Position numbers and translations under genes: made by a program
From: an uncultured Actinomycetes bacterium
GTDB lineage: Bacteria; Actinomycetota; Acidimicrobiia; Spongiisociales; ZC4RG35
DNA length: 64,000 nucleotides
Direction: 5' to 3'
Assembly (NCBI GenBank): GCA_937989945.1
Contig: CALKIG010000106.1
Location: 2,925-66,924 of the forward strand
Notes under the pieces: model-generated
Seen by the model: the letters and a program-made list of their open reading frames with translations, nothing else
Told to the model about the DNA's origin: nothing
Databases searched by the model: none
Shown: positions 6,071-64,000 of the stretch, in pieces
Layout of the letters: the number at the start of each line of letters is the position of its first letter
How positions within the stretch are numbered: the first letter of the stretch is position 1

Positions 6071-7513
6071 TCACCGATCGATCATCTGGTCCACAGGGGC
6101 GAAGTCGTCCCGAAGCACGAGGCCTCCTGTCGTGAAGGATTCGAGATCGGCGCCAGTCAGGACGGCCTCGCTTCCACCGCGTTCCGCGATGGCCCGTATC
6201 AACGCCGGGGTATCCAATGCGGCTTGCGATCCGACGATGACGAAGTTTCCTCCCGCCTCGCCGCTCAGGTACGACGGCGGAGCGATCACGGCGACGTGAT
6301 CAAATACCGCTTCGAAAGTCTTGACTGTGGACATTGCGAAGTCGAGGTCGCCGTAATCGATGACATTGATCAAGTAGAGGCCCGTGGGCGCCATCCGGCT
6401 GTCGACAATCGAAACGAACTCCGCTGTCGTCAGGTGCCAGGGGACGGTCAGCCCGCTGAAGGCATCACCGATGACCAGGTCGATCGAGGCCGGCGGCACA
6501 TCCTGGATTGACTGCCGTGCGTCTGCGATGACGACTTCGGCCTCGTCTTCGAATCCGAGCTCCGACCGACCGATGTCGACGAGCAGACGATCTATCTCGA
6601 GCACGACATGGTCGGTGCCGGGCCTCGTCGCCTCCAAGTACTGGGGAAACGTGAAACCACCCCCGCCGATCGAGAGCACACTCAGAGGGCCGGAGGCGAA
6701 GTTGGCATCGATCACGTCCGCCATTACCCGGGCGTATCTGAAGTCCAGATAGGTCGGGTCTTCCAGGTCGACATAGCTGTTGTGGCCGCGGTCGAGGATG
6801 AGCAGGCGTCCCGTGGGCCTGTCCGGGTCCACCACCACATCGGCGCAGTGATAGGTGGTCTCGTATTGGCACGGCCCGTCGGAAGAGGCCAGGGCCGTGG
6901 CGGAGCCGACGGCGACAAGTAGCACCGCCAGCGGGACCCATCGGCCCCGTCCGATCATCAGCGATGCGCCGCCAAGAGAGAGAAGCAGCCCGAGTCCGGC
7001 AACTATGGGACGGGTTGGAAACGCGGCGATCAGGACGAAGCCGGTGACGAATGTACCGAAAATGGCACCGGCCGTGCCTATCGCCGAGTAGGAGCCAACC
7101 ACCGATCCGGTGTTGTCCAACGAGGCGAGGCGAATCTTGACGACTATCGGGGAGACGGCAGACAACAAAGCCGCGGGAACGACGAAGCCCACCGTTGCCA
7201 GAAAGACAATCGACAGCGGGTTGATGCCGACACCGGGTCCGAAGAAGTCGATTATCACGGGGCTGAGAATGGCGGATAGCCCTCCAGCCACCATCAGAGG
7301 CCCGGGCAGGCGGGTCGGATCGAGTCGGTCTGCGGCTCGTCCCCCTAGCCAGGCACCAATCGAAATGCCCGCCAGGATCACCCCAATGATCCCGGTGAAC
7401 ACTTCGAGGCTGACGCCGAGATAGGGCGCGAGCAAACGGCCCGCGAGTATCTCGATGATCAGCACGGATGCCGAAGTGGTGAAGACCACCACTCGAGCCA
7501 TTGCCTGGCTCAA
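6071..7513 (-). CDS. fused membrane (MFS-like) / spermidine synthase-like methyltransferase-fold protein
   Basis: 480 aa. About 200 aa of N-terminal TM helices, then a SAM-MTase/spermidine-synthase-like domain (VLSIGGGGFTFPQYL, DLVIGDAF). Confidence 0.8.
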   Translation of the reverse strand: MSQAMARVVVFTTSASVLIIEILAGRLLAPYLGVSLEVFTGIIGVILAGISIGAWLGGRAADRLDPTRLPGPLMVAGGLSAILSPVIIDFFGPGVGINPLSIVFLATVGFVVPAALLSAVSPIVVKIRLASLDNTGSVVGSYSAIGTAGAIFGTFVTGFVLIAAFPTRPIVAGLGLLLSLGGASLMIGRGRWVPLAVLLVAVGSATALASSDGPCQYETTYHCADVVVDPDRPTGRLLILDRGHNSYVDLEDPTYLDFRYARVMADVIDANFASGPLSVLSIGGGGFTFPQYLEATRPGTDHVVLEIDRLLVDIGRSELGFEDEAEVVIADARQSIQDVPPASIDLVIGDAFSGLTVPWHLTTAEFVSIVDSRMAPTGLYLINVIDYGDLDFAMSTVKTFEAVFDHVAVIAPPSYLSGEAGGNFVIVGSQAALDTPALIRAIAERGGSEAVLTGADLESFTTGGLVLRDDFAPVDQMIDR

Positions 7514-30439: not shown

Positions 30440-31173
30440 CAGAGGATCTCCTCATAAACAGCCTGAAGCCGATCTGACGGCTCGACCCCGAGCTCGGAGG
30501 CAAGGACTTCTCTCGCCCGGGCGAACACACGTAGAGCGGCTGCTCGATTCCCCTGGTCTGCGCAGGCCCGCATGAGCTTGATATATCCCGTTTCCCGATA
30601 AGGGTCGATCGCGATGAGCTGCTCGGCCGCCGCTCCTGACTGGACCGGATCATCCAACAGAGACCAAGCGTCGGCGACCACTTCGAATGCGCGGACGAGG
30701 CGGTTGTGGAAAGCCCGCCGCTGCTCATCGATCCACAGCCCGGAAACACCCGGGAGAAACGGACGGCGAAAAACGGCCGAGGCAACGGCTGCGCCAACCC
30801 AGGCCCGACGAGCGTCATCGCGGCGCAGGGCTCCCTCCGCGGCATCGAGCTCTCGGGTCGCGTCAAGGGCATCGACCCAGATGCTCGGATCACGGCGCAT
30901 TTCGACCGATCCGGCGGATGACACCAACCTCGATCCGTCGTCGCCGGCCTTTTCGAGTGCGCGGCGAACCTTGGACAGTATTGGCGACAGGCTCCGCTCC
31001 CAGCCCTCGGGAGGTTCGGCCCACATGATCGATGCCAGCCGATCGCGCGCCATCGCATGGGGAGTCAGTGCGAGCGCCGCCACGGCAATGCGGCCCTGCA
31101 AGCCAGGCAGGTCGGCTTCGTCTACGACCCTCTCGGCTTCGAGGGTGACCCTTCCCGTCACATAGATCCGCAC
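30439..31173 (-). CDS. SARP (AfsR/DnrI) family regulator: winged-helix DNA-binding domain + BTAD
   Basis: VRIYVTGRVTLEAE...RDRLASIMWAE (OmpR-type wHTH), then BTAD-like LIAIDPYRETGYIKLMRACADQGNRAAALRVFARAREVLASELGVEPS. GTG 31173 is preferred; the ORF is open to 31248. Its stop shares one base with the GNAT ATG. Confidence 0.8.
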   Translation of the reverse strand: MRIYVTGRVTLEAERVVDEADLPGLQGRIAVAALALTPHAMARDRLASIMWAEPPEGWERSLSPILSKVRRALEKAGDDGSRLVSSAGSVEMRRDPSIWVDALDATRELDAAEGALRRDDARRAWVGAAVASAVFRRPFLPGVSGLWIDEQRRAFHNRLVRAFEVVADAWSLLDDPVQSGAAAEQLIAIDPYRETGYIKLMRACADQGNRAAALRVFARAREVLASELGVEPSDRLQAVYEEIL

Positions 31174-57317: not shown

Positions 57318-58121
57318 TTGATCCCCCCTTCAAGCGTCCTACTCCGTAACAACGTCACCGTCGCCGGCGTCCCACACGGTCAGCCCATGCTGTTCGCCCA
57401 CGGCTATGGGTGTGACCAGAACATGTGGCGGCACGTCGTGCCCGCCTTCGAGGACACGCACCGCATCATCCTCTTCGACCACGTCGGTGCCGGTGGCTCC
57501 GACCTCGACGCGTACGACTTCGAGAAGTACGACAGCCTTCACGGCTATGCGAGCGACATCTCGGAAATATGCCGGGAGCTCGAACTCTCCGAGGTGATAT
57601 TCATCGGCCACAGCGTTGCGTCGATGATGGGCGTCCTGGCTGCAAGACAAAGCCCTGAAACCTTCTCGAAACTGATCCTGGTCGGCCCCTCACCCCGCTA
57701 CATCGACGACGATGGGTATCGCGGCGGCTTCACCGAAGATCAAATCGACGATCTGCTCGTCTCGCTCGAAAGCAACTTCCTCGGTTGGTCGGCTCAGATG
57801 GCTCCACTGATCATGGGAAACGACGACAGGCCGCAGCTCGGCCAAGAGCTCACCAATAGCTTTTGTCGAACCGACCCGGACATCGCCGCCCACTTCGCAA
57901 AGGTTACGTTCAAATCCGACAATCGAGACGACCTCCCTGAAGTCGAGATCCCGACGCTCGTGCTGCAGTGCTCTGACGACGTGATAGCCCCCGAGTTCGT
58001 GGGCGAGTACGTGCATCGACGGCTCCCCAACGCCCTCTACAGGAAGATGAGGGCCACCGGTCACTGCCCCAACCTGAGCGCTCCCGAGGAGACGGTCCAA
58101 GCCATCAGAGAGTTCTTGTGA
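57318..58121 (+). CDS. rsbQ: RsbQ-like alpha/beta hydrolase (RsbQ / KAI2 / D14 family)
   Basis: 267 aa. Colinear with B. subtilis RsbQ from memory (MLFAHGYGCDQNMW, IGHSVASM, LQCSDDVIAP, TGHCPNLS, giving a Ser-Asp-His triad). Confidence 0.85.
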   Translation: MIPPSSVLLRNNVTVAGVPHGQPMLFAHGYGCDQNMWRHVVPAFEDTHRIILFDHVGAGGSDLDAYDFEKYDSLHGYASDISEICRELELSEVIFIGHSVASMMGVLAARQSPETFSKLILVGPSPRYIDDDGYRGGFTEDQIDDLLVSLESNFLGWSAQMAPLIMGNDDRPQLGQELTNSFCRTDPDIAAHFAKVTFKSDNRDDLPEVEIPTLVLQCSDDVIAPEFVGEYVHRRLPNALYRKMRATGHCPNLSAPEETVQAIREFL

Positions 58122-59269
58122 GGACAGAGCCCCGGCTGGCTGAACAGTCTGACGGGTCCCGAGCATATGACCGTGCTCCGTGCGGTCTGCTCACGATGAC
58201 CAGGACCGGCACCATTCTGGAGGCAAACGGGACATTCCGTAAGTGGCTGGAAATCGGCTCGGGTGAAGACCTGCCCATATTTCTCGATCTCCTCCGCGCG
58301 GGTGATCGCATTTTCTGGGACACCCATCTCGGGCCCCTGCTCGACATGCAGGGTCAGGTCAACGAAGTGGCGGTGGAGATAGCAACGCCCAGCGGTCCTG
58401 TCCCTGCGCTCCTCAACGCCTCGACATCGACCCCGGGTGATCCAGACGGCGTCATCGACATCGCCATCTTCAGGGCCGTGGACCGAAGGAGCTACGAGCG
58501 TGAGTTGCTCGCCGAGAGAAAGCTGGCGGAAGAAGCCGAGTCTCGGGCCCGGGACCTCGCCCAGACGCTGCAGAGAAGCCTGATCCCGCCCACAGTCCCT
58601 TCGATTCCAGGCCTCGACGTCTCGGCTGCGTATCGGCCGGCCGGCGACGGGTCTGAAGTCGGGGGAGATTGGTACGACGTGTTCCAGCTAGGTGCAACCT
58701 CTTGGATGGTCACGATCGGAGACGTCTGCGGGAAGGGTGCGGGTGCTGCCGCAATGACGGCCTTCATCCGCTACGCGATCAGGGGTGCCTCCATGGAGAC
58801 GTCGAATCTCAAGAAGATCCTGCGCGACGTGAACGAAGCTCTCCTCCTCGAGCGGATGGATACGACCGCCACGGTCGCCATGATCCGCCTGGACCTGGCA
58901 GAAGAGAAGCCACGGGTCGCAGTGAGCTCGGCAGGCCACCCGCTGCCCTGGAAGATCGACGAAGCTGGCCGAACACACAAACTGGGCAGTCCCGGGACCC
59001 TCCTCGGCGGTTTCTCAGAGATCAACCAGGAGGTAGAGCGGTTCGAGCTCGAGGTCGGGGAGACACTGGTGCTGATAACCGATGGAGTTACTGAAGGGAG
59101 ATCCGGCGACGAGTTCTTTGGAGAGGACAGACTCACCACCTACCTGAGTCGAACGCCTTCACTCGAGGTCTCAGAAATTCCCGAGAGGCTCGCCCAAGAC
59201 TGCGTCGCGTTCCAGGATGGCCATCCTCGCGACGACATCGCAGTGGTGGCACTGCGGCGCTCGGGCTGA
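58118..59269 (+). CDS. rsbP: PAS domain - coiled coil - PP2C (SpoIIE-type) serine phosphatase, RsbP-like
   Basis: 383 aa. GTG start overlaps the rsbQ stop (GTGA). PAS-like APCGLLTMTRTGTILEANGTF. PP2C motifs GGDWYDVF, IGDVCGKG and LITDGVTE. Confidence 0.85.
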   Translation: MRTEPRLAEQSDGSRAYDRAPCGLLTMTRTGTILEANGTFRKWLEIGSGEDLPIFLDLLRAGDRIFWDTHLGPLLDMQGQVNEVAVEIATPSGPVPALLNASTSTPGDPDGVIDIAIFRAVDRRSYERELLAERKLAEEAESRARDLAQTLQRSLIPPTVPSIPGLDVSAAYRPAGDGSEVGGDWYDVFQLGATSWMVTIGDVCGKGAGAAAMTAFIRYAIRGASMETSNLKKILRDVNEALLLERMDTTATVAMIRLDLAEEKPRVAVSSAGHPLPWKIDEAGRTHKLGSPGTLLGGFSEINQEVERFELEVGETLVLITDGVTEGRSGDEFFGEDRLTTYLSRTPSLEVSEIPERLAQDCVAFQDGHPRDDIAVVALRRSG

Positions 59270-61494: not shown

Positions 61495-62085
61495 TCAGCG
61501 ACTCTGCAAAGCGTCGAGAGCCACGGCTACAGATGCCGCCACCCTGAAGTCGAGTGTCTCGTCGGGAACCGAGATCGTGTAACGATCCCTTATCGACTTC
61601 TTGCGCTCACTGGTGAGAACCGCGTTGCCCGCTTGATCCAAGAAGTCGAAGTGGAAGACGAATGGGATCCAGACTTCGCCCAGGAAAGGGATGAAATCCC
61701 AGATCCTCCGCAGGATGGCAATCGTCATGTTGCGTTCCTGGCCTACGGCGGTCTTCGACCCGTAGCTCAGTGTCCACGTGGACCGAATCAGACTTGCGGC
61801 AAACTCCTTCTTGAAATAGCCGATTGGCCGACCGGCCGAATCGAGAACGTCATGTTCGGCGCGCACGTCTAATCCCTGCCTGGCCTTGAAGGAGAAGAGC
61901 TCCTCGGTCTTCGCCTCGTCCCGGTAGAAGATGACGTGCTCTTTGAACTTGAGCCGCTTCTGCTGTGCGAAGGCGAGCATCTCGCCTTCGCTGCCGTCTT
62001 CGCGCGCGCCAAGGATCTCGTATCGGTTGACCATGAGGGTGATCTTCTGGCGTACGAAGAATCTCGGCAGGTGTTGAGGGAGCAT
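61495..62085 (-). CDS. LURP-one-related / scramblase-like (tubby C-terminal fold) family protein
   Basis: 196 aa. FFVRQKITLMVNRYEI start and repeated beta-hairpin pattern, typical of the YxjI/LURP1 family (memory-based). Confidence 0.6.
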   Translation of the reverse strand: MLPQHLPRFFVRQKITLMVNRYEILGAREDGSEGEMLAFAQQKRLKFKEHVIFYRDEAKTEELFSFKARQGLDVRAEHDVLDSAGRPIGYFKKEFAASLIRSTWTLSYGSKTAVGQERNMTIAILRRIWDFIPFLGEVWIPFVFHFDFLDQAGNAVLTSERKKSIRDRYTISVPDETLDFRVAASVAVALDALQSR

Positions 62086-62149
62086 CGTCGGAGTGTATCG
62101 ACGAATTCCTACCCAACAGCTGCTTCCCTACTCTGTCAGTGAAGGAGAG

Positions 62150-63679
62150 ATGCAGAAGGACGCTCCCGAAATACCAGCTATCGAGTTCGCCCCGGCTCGG
62201 GGGGCACGTCTCGCGTGGCAGAGATGGGGCAATGGGACCGAAGAGATCGTGGCCATCCCGCCTCTCGCCCAAAATATCGAGGTTGCCTGGGAAGCCCCCC
62301 TCATTCGAGCGATGCTGGAGCGATTCGGCACCTTCTCCCGCTACCTCCACTTCGACAAGCGCGGCACCGGCGCCTCAGATCGGCGAAGCCGTGTGGCTGG
62401 AATCGACGAGAGAGTCGACGACATCCGAGCGGTGCTGGATCACGCCGAGATCGAAGCAGCGCACTTCTTCGTTCAGTCAGACGGCGGGCCGATGGCTCTC
62501 ATGTTCGCCGCCACTTACCCGGATCGGGTCAAGAGCCTGACGATGTTTGGCAGTGGTGCCCATCTCGCACCACCATGGTCGGAGGAGGAGCGCATCGAGC
62601 GACGGGAGCGGATGGTAAAGGAATGGGGAACTCCGCAATCTCGGATCGTCGATGCCTTCGCCCCCTCGCTGGCGGCGAATCAGGTCTTCCGCACATGGCA
62701 TCAACGCTACGAGAGGCTCGCCGCGACCACAGACTCCCTGAGGGAGCTAATCGACATATCGGCGGAGATGGACGCGCGCGAGGTGCTTCCCACTCTCGAT
62801 GTTCCGACCCTGGTTCTCCATCGTGTTGGCGACCGCGCTATCCCACTCTCCCTGGGGCGCGACCTGGCGGAGTCCATCAACGGAGCTCGTCTGGTGGAGC
62901 TCGAGGGCGACGATCACTACGCCTACGCCGGCGACGTCGCATCATGGATGAGAGAGTTCGAGCAATTCGTCACAGGTCGCTTGTCGCCACAACCCGGCAG
63001 CCGAAGATCCAACGCCAGGCCACGCATCCAAACGCTCGGTGGCTTTTCCGTGGAGCTGGATGGGAGAGACATCCCGACGTCAGACTGGGGATCTCGACTT
63101 GCTAGGCAACTCACCAAGCGTCTCGTGGCGGCGCGCGGGTGGCCGGTGACGAGAGACGAGCTGATCGAGATGCTGTGGCCGGGAGAGTCCGATATGAGAC
63201 GACTCGGCGCTCGACTCTCAGTCCTTTTGTCCACTGTCCGCCGCGTTTTGCGTGGAGGAGTGGTGGCAGACAGGGAAACGGTGCGGCTCGATCTCGACCA
63301 GGTGTCCACCGACATAGAAGACCTATACGCGGCGAGAGATGATCGAGCCGTCCTAGCGGCCTATGTGGGTGAGTTTCTGCCCGAGGACCGGTACGAAGAC
63401 TGGACCCGTGGCATCAGAGACGAGATACGAAGCCGCTTTGTCGGGGCGGCCAAGGCTGTGGCTGAGGAGGAGATCGCTGCCAAGAACCCTTCAGGCGCGG
63501 CAACTCTGTATCGCAAGATCATTGCCGTGGACCCCTATGACGACGCAACTCACCGCGCTCTCATCAACGCCCTGTTGGCATCTGGGGACCCTGGCGGCGC
63601 CCGCCGAGCGCATGCTGCTTGGACTAAGTCGATGAGTGAGATCGACGCATCGGTTCCGTCGTTCGAGACACTTTCGTAA
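62150..63679 (+). CDS. alpha/beta-fold hydrolase fused to SARP-type winged helix and BTAD domains
   Basis: 509 aa from ATG 62150 (the ORF is open to GTG 62093, only 7 nt from the divergent gene). Hydrolase motifs HFDKRGTGASD, VQSDGG, VGDRAIP, DDHY. wHTH IQTLGGFSVELDG...RDELIEMLWP. BTAD VAVDPYDDATHRALINALLASGDPGGA-like repeats. Confidence 0.8.
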   Translation: MQKDAPEIPAIEFAPARGARLAWQRWGNGTEEIVAIPPLAQNIEVAWEAPLIRAMLERFGTFSRYLHFDKRGTGASDRRSRVAGIDERVDDIRAVLDHAEIEAAHFFVQSDGGPMALMFAATYPDRVKSLTMFGSGAHLAPPWSEEERIERRERMVKEWGTPQSRIVDAFAPSLAANQVFRTWHQRYERLAATTDSLRELIDISAEMDAREVLPTLDVPTLVLHRVGDRAIPLSLGRDLAESINGARLVELEGDDHYAYAGDVASWMREFEQFVTGRLSPQPGSRRSNARPRIQTLGGFSVELDGRDIPTSDWGSRLARQLTKRLVAARGWPVTRDELIEMLWPGESDMRRLGARLSVLLSTVRRVLRGGVVADRETVRLDLDQVSTDIEDLYAARDDRAVLAAYVGEFLPEDRYEDWTRGIRDEIRSRFVGAAKAVAEEEIAAKNPSGAATLYRKIIAVDPYDDATHRALINALLASGDPGGARRAHAAWTKSMSEIDASVPSFETLS

Positions 63680-63713
63680 GGATTTCTGAAGGTTGTGGAG
63701 CACCATCGGCCTC

Positions 63714-64000
63714 ATGAGTATCGAACACGCCCTGGCACACCCTCAGACGACCGTCCTCGGGCCCGATGACGGAAGCCACTTCGAGTTTCTGAACAATCGA
63801 GCAACAGTGAAGCTCGCAGGCGCTGCGTCGAAAACGATGAGCGTCGTCGAATTCCTGGCACCCCGCGGCTTTGGCCCTCCGCAGCACCGCCACAACAGCG
63901 AAGATGAGCTCTTCTTCGTTCTCGAGGGATCACTCCGTTTCTTCACCGGGGACGAAGAGATAGATGGCCCGGAGGGCTCCTTTGCATTCCTGCCTCACTC
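63714..64000 (+). CDS. cupin domain protein, 3' end beyond the window
   Basis: Own translation from ATG 63714: MSIEHALAHPQTTVLGPDDGSHFEFLNNRATVKLAGAASKTMSVVEFLAPRGFGPPQHRHNSEDELFFVLEGSLRFFTGDEEIDGPEGSFAFLPH. The HRH..EDE..F.LEG cupin motif is present. No stop before the window end. Confidence 0.65.
   Translation, partial: MSIEHALAHPQTTVLGPDDGSHFEFLNNRATVKLAGAASKTMSVVEFLAPRGFGPPQHRHNSEDELFFVLEGSLRFFTGDEEIDGPEGSFAFLPH

Follow-up and report, generated by a model that had tools for sequence, protein, structure and literature searches.

A hydrolase-SARP fusion protein linked to a quercetinase-like cupin gene and a conserved candidate operator in uncultured Acidimicrobiia and Nitriliruptoria

Proteins of the SARP family (SARPs, for Streptomyces antibiotic regulatory proteins; among them AfsR, ActII-ORF4, DnrI and RedD of Streptomyces and EmbR of Mycobacterium) share a fold in which a winged helix-turn-helix (wHTH) is followed by a BTAD domain and their published sites are direct repeats on one DNA face, which stand 8 nt upstream of the -10 and overlap or replace the -35 (PMC11301090). 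The available portions of two surveys (PMC10972967, PMC12224297) distinguish small, medium (NB-ARC), large (TPR) and SARP-LAL classes, in all of which the DNA-binding domain is N-terminal, and contain no hydrolase class. Here we analyse a stretch of 64,000 nucleotides (hereafter the window) from contig CALKIG010000106.1 of an uncultured Acidimicrobiia bacterium, in which one gene (62150..63679, forward strand) encodes an alpha/beta hydrolase followed by a SARP module (hydrolase-SARP regulator, H-SARP) and is followed in turn by a candidate operator and a cupin gene. H-SARP resembles the described SARPs in the wHTH-BTAD fold and in its candidate operator, which consists of direct repeats in an 11-bp phase, stops 8-9 bp upstream of a -10 hexamer and stands in for the -35. 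Unlike them, it carries the module C-terminally, behind an N-terminal hydrolase (published classes have the DNA-binding domain first), has a short BTAD, occurs in uncultured Acidimicrobiia and Nitriliruptoria instead of Streptomyces, and has as its conserved predicted target a single leaderless cupin gene, not a biosynthetic cluster.

The closest described counterpart of the hydrolase half is LipJ (Rv1900c), with which it shares the hydrolase subtype, the motifs PPxAQN[IL]E..W, SEGG, HRxGD and G.DH, and a position N-terminal to an output domain; in H-SARP this output is a SARP module instead of a class III cyclase, and the glycine of the nucleophile elbow is mostly replaced by valine or alanine. 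The similarity to RsbQ (which works with the RsbP phosphatase) and to D14/KAI2 is one of concept only (an intact-triad hydrolase serving as signal input), for these proteins belong to another hydrolase lineage and keep receptor and output separate, whereas H-SARP unites them in one chain with a predicted interface. A further parallel is offered by the 'closed' OmpR/PhoB regulators MtrA, PrrA and DrrB, in which the recognition helix is sterically hindered (PMC3960148). As in these regulators, an N-terminal regulatory domain is predicted to pack on the wHTH of H-SARP (interface at residues 369-397), but the domain is a hydrolase and not a phospho-receiver, and the closed state is a prediction.

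The cupin has its best solved relatives by sequence in YxaG/QdoI of Bacillus subtilis and QueD of Streptomyces sp. FLA, with which its metal ligands align; it differs from them in a conserved C-terminal extension of about 55 residues. QdoI is controlled by TetR-type repressors. Quercetinases yield a diphenolic ester (depside) together with CO, and according to the same paper (PMC4416304) it is not known what regulates queD in Streptomyces.

Linkage of the regulator to a cupin gene and a conserved box

The following features of the window carry the analysis (all on the forward strand; residue numbering follows, here and throughout, the 528-aa frame that starts at GTG 62093):

62150..63679, +, H-SARP gene, 509 aa; the longest open reading frame (ORF) runs from GTG 62093
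62165..62983, +, LipJ-type alpha/beta-hydrolase domain, residues 25-297 (Pfam, NCBIfam LipJ, Foldseek)
62477-62479, +, codon of Ser129, predicted triad nucleophile
62831-62833, +, codon of Asp247, predicted triad acid
62915-62917, +, codon of His275, predicted triad histidine
63020..63292, +, OmpR-type wHTH, residues ~310-400 (model secondary structure, EmbR/AfsR fold matches)
63194-63250, +, presumed recognition helix, residues 368-386, followed by a wing hairpin at 390-399
63305..63676, +, short BTAD helical domain, residues ~405-528 (Pfam BTAD, fold matches)
63675..63692, +, candidate SARP operator CGTAAGGATTTCTGAAGG, two direct CNRAAGG repeats in an 11-bp phase
63693-63700, +, spacer, 8 nt
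63701..63706, +, -10-like hexamer CACCAT, with no separate -35 element
63707-63713, +, spacer, 7 nt
63714, +, ATG of the cupin gene
63714..64000, +, cupin gene (5' part only; complete, it encodes 170 aa and ends 226 nt past the window, positions 6639-7151 of locus L086)

We searched 17 neighbouring genes against 80 orthologous loci, which were kept from 137 stretches encoding a relative (one genome per species) and belong to Acidimicrobiia (including Ilumatobacteraceae and Acidimicrobiaceae) and to metagenome-assembled genomes (MAGs) of Nitriliruptoraceae/Egibacteraceae. The gene immediately downstream of H-SARP, the cupin, was the only one conserved (68 of 80 loci), the others being found in at most 3 of the 80. 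It lay downstream on the same strand within ~300 bp in 53 loci and further downstream (0.8-2.2 kb) in 4, upstream on the same strand in 3, and in divergent orientation in 8 (the gaps are approximate, as measured from the ends of tblastn alignments). In eight of the 12 loci that lack a cupin the sequence ends no further than 700 bp from H-SARP.

The cupin (Pfam Cupin_2, E 2.4e-11; an identical 170-aa protein is present in the sequence collection) matches in the PDB the quercetin 2,3-dioxygenase YxaG (2h0v, E 1.5e-14) and the monocupin quercetinase QueD (5fli, E 1.2e-9), and its HxHx4E motif and distal histidine ligands align with both. All 120 family members examined keep the four residues expected of a 3His-1Glu metal site (H58, H60, E65 and H99), the extension of about 55 residues at the C-terminus is conserved, and no NCBIfam model reaches its own cut-off for this protein. 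We describe it as a predicted quercetinase-like 3His-1Glu monocupin.

The candidate operator straddles the 3' end of the regulator gene, its AAGG cores lying at 63678-63681 and 63689-63692 and its first repeat overlapping the TAA stop of H-SARP (63677-63679). Across the 834 kb of 81 loci, searched on both strands, the pattern AAGG-N7-AAGG was found 74 times, versus 16.4 +/- 4.3 times in block shuffles, and within 71 box instances conservation extended to positions outside the search pattern (C at -3 in 69, T at +5 in 68, C at +8 in 67 and G at +15 in 58), with a consensus formed by the 11-bp unit CNRAAGG[T/G]T. An ATG followed the box at 20-24 nt (most often 21) in 60 of the 71 instances, and in 59 of these 60 a NANNNT hexamer stood 8-9 nt after the box, with 6-7 nt between its end and the ATG in 57 cases and 8-9 nt in the other 2. 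Because of this spacing of box, -10 and ATG, we consider that the cupin is probably translated from a leaderless mRNA. At the sequence level the site at 63675-63692, with its 8-nt spacer to CACCAT, has the geometry described for SARP target promoters. The box precedes the cupin in every gene arrangement, including the divergent cupins and those placed upstream of the regulator, and in most loci the regulator gene has no box of its own.

In the whole host genome the cupin site was the top match to the position weight matrix (PWM) of the box, at 27.0 bits; in shuffled genomes, sites of >=22 bits averaged 0.05 per genome and those of >=20 bits 0.3. In an evenly drawn sample of 301 genomes of the class, H-SARP was present full-length in 12 and in two pieces in 1 (G028), and a strict form of the box (CNNAAGGWTNYCNRAAGG) matched 23 genomes. 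It lay within ~200 bp of H-SARP in 12 of the 13 genomes carrying the gene, and the thirteenth (G090) had a one-base variant of the box directly after H-SARP. Strict matches in the genomes without the gene (11 of 288) are at background level, a reversed-pattern control giving 10 matches in 9 genomes. We attach no P-value to the co-occurrence, as related genomes are not independent; the tallies include two unpublished genomes (G212 and G275), both without the gene and without the box, and nothing else in the analysis draws on these two.

The two halves of the protein and their predicted contact

The ORF 62093..63679 (+) is uninterrupted and, in the ORF listing, encodes 528 aa from a GTG start. 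The true start is probably ATG 62150 (residue 20, product of 509 aa), because orthologues are mostly ~500-516 aa long and their alignments start at this codon, GAAGGAGAG is found at 62141-62149, immediately 5' of it, and residues 1-22 are disordered in the full-length model (predicted local distance difference test, pLDDT, <50). In many orthologues (L006-L085; e.g., GGTAGCCTC...GTG) a TANNNT-like hexamer is found 6-12 nt before the start codon, which suggests that the mRNA of the regulator is itself often leaderless in these lineages; the gene in the window has the GAAGGAGAG stretch before its ATG in place of such a hexamer. H-SARP is single-copy in its own genome.

The initial annotation had described one ORF with a hydrolase, a winged helix and a BTAD domain, in this order, and Pfam, the structural models and the fold search bear this out. 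It had also named a frameshift or sequencing error that joined two genes as one circumstance that would undo the description. The sole oddity in favour of such an artefact is that the longest ORF begins 57 nt upstream of the likely start codon. The reading frame is intact, the two halves are confidently predicted to pack together (below), and the full-length fusion recurs in at least 119 further 90%-identity clusters, retrieved by a word-indexed search (55-70% identity over 86-97% of the query), and in 137 species-representative genomes from independent assemblies; this recurrence refutes the artefact, to which we concede a negligible chance.

In the N-terminal half Pfam recognises Abhydrolase_1 (E 3.3e-13) and Hydrolase_4 (E 9e-9), and the AlphaFold2 model of the full-length protein (48 orthologues in the alignment) reached a pLDDT of 91.3 and a predicted template modelling score (pTM) of 0.88. 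Foldseek matched this half to the 3-oxoadipate enol-lactonase 2xua and the aryl esterase 1va4 (TM 0.83-0.85, target-normalised). The candidate serine, aspartate and histidine motifs that had been pointed out from the sequence (VQSDGG, LHRVGDRAIP and GDDHYAY) hold Ser129, Asp247 and His275, which occupy the canonical sites of an alpha/beta hydrolase, as judged from fold and model secondary structure: Ser129 in the strand-5/helix-C elbow after the strand at 123-128, Asp247 in the loop after strand 7 (239-244) and His275 in the loop after strand 8 (266-270). In the HMMER alignments Ser129 falls on the nucleophile site of both 3om8 and the EstX S102A mutant. None of 120 orthologues departs from serine and histidine at these sites, residue 247 is an aspartate in 107 of them and a glutamate in 13, and of the elbow V-Q-S-D-G-G the glycines at +2 and +3 are invariant in all 120. 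Throughout the wider family the serine is kept in 126 of 135 aligned sequences, the histidine in 121 of 128 and an Asp or Glu in 131 of 132, and lid residues are strongly conserved among the relatives.

The best named model for this domain is NCBIfam LipJ (NF058673, the hydrolase-cyclase Rv1900c; E 1.5e-38, residues 25-297), although H-SARP falls outside the equivalog, scoring 132.7 bits against a cut-off of 800, covering profile positions 5-286 of 449 and having no cyclase domain. The comparison with RsbQ, D14 and KAI2 made in the initial annotation does not extend to lineage, the hydrolase being LipJ-like: RsbQ was absent from the 52 PDB sequence matches of H-SARP at E <= 0.001, and a KAI2-like chain (15% identity) was one among many equal fold matches to the hydrolase.

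In the C-terminal half Pfam BTAD (PF03704) matched residues 413-509 (E 8.4e-7; 29.9 bits, where the cut-off is 22.1) over profile positions 25-121 of 146, which makes this a short BTAD. A separate model of residues 300-528 (229 residues, pLDDT 96.5) gave in the fold search only six PDB matches at E <= 0.001, all of them EmbR (2ff4, 2fez) or the SARP domain of AfsR (8hvr, 8k60), with TMq of 0.67-0.73 over ~240-250 alignment columns that span both subdomains. The RLGARLSVLLSTVRRVL stretch aligns weakly with the equivalent stretch of the DNA-binding domain of an OmpR-family response regulator (7lz9, E 0.031), and we take it to be the recognition helix from the order of helices in the models and from OmpR-fold topology. 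The winged helix (by fold) and the BTAD domain directly after it (by Pfam) are those of the SARP family, and the arrangement is not, the module lying at residues ~310-528 behind a hydrolase of 275 residues. That SARPs normally start with the DNA-binding domain, as had been stated for this locus at the outset, agrees with the published classifications cited above. C-terminal SARP modules are not confined to the hydrolase fusion, because one is found in P0167 (residues 782-988 of 999), a protein with an N-terminal GerE HTH. Along with P0167, SARP modules 41-53% identical to that of H-SARP were seen in proteins of ~1000-1100 aa from related genomes (G018:C1:1930624-1931346, G038:C47:100653-101378 and G162:C4:42433-43152).

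The LipJ-type hydrolase was also encountered as a fusion partner elsewhere. An exhaustive HMMER search retrieved 28,050 proteins at E <= 0.001 (943 at E <= 1e-30), and Pfam architectures were read for 103 of the best 150 representatives (P0121-P0223), with the following counts:

SARP/BTAD, then hydrolase (the canonical SARP order): 17 of 103
Trans_reg_C alone, then hydrolase: 7 of 103
hydrolase, then GerE: 5 of 103
GerE, then hydrolase: 1 of 103
hydrolase, then class III cyclase: 13 of 103, and 1 more that also has a SARP module
protein kinase, then hydrolase: 2 of 103
TIR, then hydrolase: 1 of 103
HTH_31, then hydrolase: 1 of 103
AAA_16, then hydrolase: 1 of 103

Common to these architectures are many core and lid residues (among them Q43, W66, D88-K-R-G, S129-x-G-G, W178-G179, R208, D227, H243-R244 and D274-H275). 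Since one hydrolase subtype is fused to so many signalling outputs with the same core and lid, it behaves, to all appearance, as an input domain. At 12 control loci of other LipJ-type fusions (8 with a cyclase Pfam match, 1 SARP-hydrolase-cyclase and 3 with the hydrolase only) we found neither a cupin (0/12) nor a box of >=12 bits (0/12).

The contact between the halves was approached by complex prediction of the hydrolase (residues 24-298) against the SARP part (308-528), which gave an interaction score (ipSAE) of 0.77 (runs of 0.69, 0.81 and 0.77) when the best of 3 controls scored 0.00; 116 of 157 solved complexes attain the pass mark of the procedure, as do 2 of 215 mismatched pairs, and a score of this kind supports binding and does not demonstrate it. 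Agreement between the runs was >=97% of contacts, and the partner's pLDDT was >=91. On the SARP side the predicted interface comprises residues 369-370, 372-374, 376-377, 379-380, 383-384, 388, 391-394 and 397 (that is, the recognition helix at 368-386 and the wing), and on the hydrolase side residues 100-112, 137-143 (the far end of the Ser129 helix) and 225-231 (the end of the lid). Invariant or nearly invariant among them are D105, E106, V108, R112, T141, Y142, P143, D227 and E230, which face R374, S376, V377, S380, R383 and R384. The modelled docking of the recognition helix on the hydrolase suggests a closed, autoinhibited state, in which acidic residues of the hydrolase may mimic the phosphates of DNA.

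Proposed regulation and its alternatives

From what was computed (the integrity of the gene, both folds, the conservation of the triad, the linkage to the cupin, and the conservation, geometry and co-occurrence of the box) we infer binding of the box by H-SARP, activation of transcription, gating by a ligand and the kind of ligand concerned. Our preferred reading, to which we assign a probability of roughly 0.55, is that H-SARP is a one-component activator whose SARP module, on the CNRAAGG repeats, switches on the leaderless mRNA of the cupin, with the LipJ-type hydrolase as a ligand-gated input. In the resting state the hydrolase would hold the DNA-reading helix and the wing against the helices that follow strands 4 and 5 as well as against the lid's end, and a small ester or lactone bound or cleaved in its pocket would release the helix. 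Two protomers of the opened protein could then occupy the two repeats at 63675-63692, 8 bp upstream of the weak -10 and in place of a -35, where the bound SARP modules would recruit RNA polymerase, so that the leaderless cupin mRNA would start. The ligand may be chemically related to the substrate of the cupin or to its ester product, and the hydrolase might read such an ester or also degrade it.

Several observations weigh against this reading. Four loci with ample flanks still lack a cupin, the Joint Genome Institute (JGI) name 'quercetin dioxygenase-like' for the cupin is a generic pipeline label, and the -10 hexamers begin mostly with C or G and not with T. Pfam Trans_reg_C has no match in H-SARP at E <= 0.01 (it is matched in the family representative P0125 at E 5.1e-7), and a sequence-only PDB search with the C-terminal half returned solely the response regulator 7lz9 at E 0.031. 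Two positions ahead of the nucleophile the 120 orthologues have Val (69), Ala (38) or Gly (13), where Gly stands in 117 of 135 aligned sequences of related fusions, and a residue other than glycine in the elbow may mean lower or altered catalysis. The score of the complex prediction is the model's own confidence, obtained with an alignment of our own for two halves of one chain in a single state. Lastly, the host genome contains seven other ORFs that match BTAD, and because of these the box is assigned to H-SARP by adjacency and by co-occurrence in related, non-independent genomes. The seven are found in the window itself at 30442-30876 (-) (in a frame of ~271 aa) and on contigs C34, C25, C158, C54, C122 and C32, several of them being 1029-1488 aa long.

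The protein might alternatively combine an enzyme with an ungated activator, the hydrolase being a pathway esterase (acting, for instance, on a quercetinase-type depside) that was fused for co-inheritance or stoichiometry, and the SARP half being constitutive and controlled through the amount of protein. A fully conserved triad, as in a working enzyme, and the tight linkage to the cupin would fit such a fusion; so would the listing of LipJ, the nearest named family, as a characterised esterase (review PMC10865251) and the ester nature of quercetinase products, which makes a dioxygenase and an esterase a sensible metabolic pair (PMC4416304). The same hydrolase subtype is, however, found on cyclases, LuxR- and OmpR-type HTH domains, kinases and TIR, none of which is a pathway partner of a cupin, and no cupin accompanies the 12 other LipJ-type fusion loci. 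Burial of the recognition helix in the predicted interface would make little sense for an ungated activator, and since most loci have no box for the regulator itself, it is unlike a part of an induced operon. We hold the ungated fusion to be rather doubtful. In a pseudoenzyme scaffold, by comparison, the hydrolase would no longer bind a small molecule and would serve oligomerisation, stability or the docking of another protein that brings the signal. Its strand-3 loop reads PP where PG is commonest in related LipJ-type fusions (an HG motif is usual at this loop in alpha/beta hydrolases generally), the glycine two before the nucleophile, normally a small residue, has given way to Val in 69 of 120 orthologues, and no member has a known ligand; yet serine, histidine and an acid are retained in 120 of 120 orthologues and in most of the wider family, and strongly conserved lid residues are not expected of a dead pocket. 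We regard the scaffold as improbable.

It is also conceivable that another factor (e.g., another SARP-like protein) reads the box, that H-SARP controls other genes and that its adjacency to the cupin is incidental. The other BTAD-matching ORFs would provide candidates for such a factor, and consensus-like boxes exist in three genomes in which the gene was not found (G063, G191 and G227). Against this, all 13 gene-bearing genomes have an adjoining box, when the frequency in the others equals that of the reversed pattern, the box keeps its place between regulator and cupin through four gene arrangements, and the site in G063 has no start codon at the conserved distance and no cupin nearby, and is likely a chance occurrence. 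We judge that a different reader of the box is quite improbable, and we retain the one-component activator with a ligand-gated hydrolase as the preferred explanation.

A more far-reaching idea, which we put forward tentatively and consider rather unlikely, is that LipJ-type hydrolases might constitute a broad, unrecognised class of hydrolytic receptors in Actinomycetota, with cyclase, LuxR, OmpR, SARP, kinase and TIR outputs, and that H-SARP would be a single-chain bacterial counterpart of D14/KAI2. Cleavage of an ester, or its covalent capture at Ser129, would move the lid and free the DNA-reading helix, the ester would be the depside-type product made by the dioxygenase that H-SARP itself turns on, and the regulator would thereby sense the flux through its own step.

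Distribution, further sites and surroundings

H-SARP is a conserved, unstudied family of Acidimicrobiia and of Nitriliruptoria MAGs. At 50% clustering its full-length form is represented by only about eight sequences, and within the 301-genome sample it was absent from the three other genomes of its own genus. In G028 (G028:C18:61523-62532) the gene is split into two pieces, which cover residues 7-122 and residues 287-498; its box persists, and this copy is possibly decaying.

The search for the architecture that had been proposed in the initial annotation showed that the fusion indeed recurs widely, and also that it is not unknown to databases, because automatic annotation recognises both halves: JGI pipelines label it as 'pimeloyl-ACP methyl ester carboxylesterase/DNA-binding SARP family transcriptional activator', and the source names include 'alpha/beta fold hydrolase [Acidimicrobiia bacterium]'. 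Full-text searches of the literature that is open without subscription found no paper on hydrolase-SARP fusions. What is newly described here is the LipJ type of the hydrolase, the cupin linkage, the candidate operator, the predicted target and a testable model of gating; the automatic annotation of both halves was known before.

The family extends SARP regulators beyond the antibiotic clusters of Streptomyces and adds a serine-hydrolase input and a sensor-first order that current classifications do not hold. It would also be a first candidate regulator class for quercetinase-like cupins, and it forms a compact, testable system of one regulator, one conserved 18-bp candidate operator, one conserved target and an interface, predicted to be autoinhibitory, whose residues can be named. 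Should the hydrolase prove to be a ligand-gated input, this reasoning would bear on many LipJ-type fusions of Actinomycetota, including the hydrolase-cyclases, and to our knowledge the role of the hydrolase half in the latter is still unclear. The system might, in addition, become a source of parts for ester- or lactone-responsive biosensors.

The regulon could extend beyond the cupin. The second PWM match in the host genome (22.5 bits, at G000:C148:33541-34727) is followed by a TAGGGT -10 and a leaderless ATG, and the gene that starts there (MKVLFSIIPGHGH...), which runs to the end of the contig, looks like a GT1-type glycosyltransferase when identified by eye and is a possible second member of the regulon. 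Seven further sites of the genome, at 12-16 bits, are at chance level (9 real sites of >=12 bits versus 10.5 in shuffles) and were discarded. Likewise discarded was a 589-aa open frame on C21 with a weak hydrolase match, for it contains, on that strand, no ORF of >=300 aa with a start codon.

In other genomes secondary targets appear to vary, as judged from the placement of additional boxes. Eight Nitriliruptoraceae loci (L032-L035, L045, L059, L077 and L079) have a second CNRAAGG box ~0.7 kb upstream of the regulator, in front of a conserved secreted protein of ~185 aa (signal peptide, motifs AMGYHYVN and LHVWLWQANP) that fits none of the families checked, and this box would place the regulator in an autoregulated operon. 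In two Ilumatobacteraceae loci (L051 near 5948 and L067 near 5933, both on the minus strand) a divergent box and a leaderless ATG precede a lipoprotein of ~180 aa (TAIDY..VP..V.AG ... EVHE.VA.RL), a candidate lineage-specific target, and in G014 a second site stands before a 175-aa protein.

The promoter region 62086..62150, which the initial annotation had singled out for binding assays, can be set aside as a target: it has no PWM match of >=12 bits, and the conserved candidate operator lies at the other end of the gene, before the cupin. The ORF that adjoins H-SARP divergently on this side (61495-62085, minus strand, 196 aa) belongs to no Pfam family and is present at 0 of 80 orthologous loci. 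Since none of the remaining neighbours (glgA, glgC, the RsbQ-like and SpoIIE genes, photolyase-related, YtfJ-like, thiolases, RPE65, TetR and others) occurs in more than 3 of the 80 loci, we do not count them with the unit. Beyond the 3' end of the window (L086 7347-12264) the opposite strand carries a 209-aa ORF, two thiolase-like genes, an RPE65-type carotenoid oxygenase (E 5e-141) and a TetR gene, none of them conserved with the regulator-cupin pair.

The RsbQ homologue that had been noticed ~4 kb upstream of H-SARP is real (57318..58121, forward strand; E 2.9e-90 against RsbQ of B. subtilis, 1wom), with KAI2/D14 as its next matches. The gene that follows, for a 383-aa protein with a SpoIIE/PP2C domain (E 1.2e-40), begins in overlap with its stop codon, and the pair, which spans 57318-59269 (+), is a putative RsbQ-RsbP-like energy-stress module in an actinobacterial MAG.

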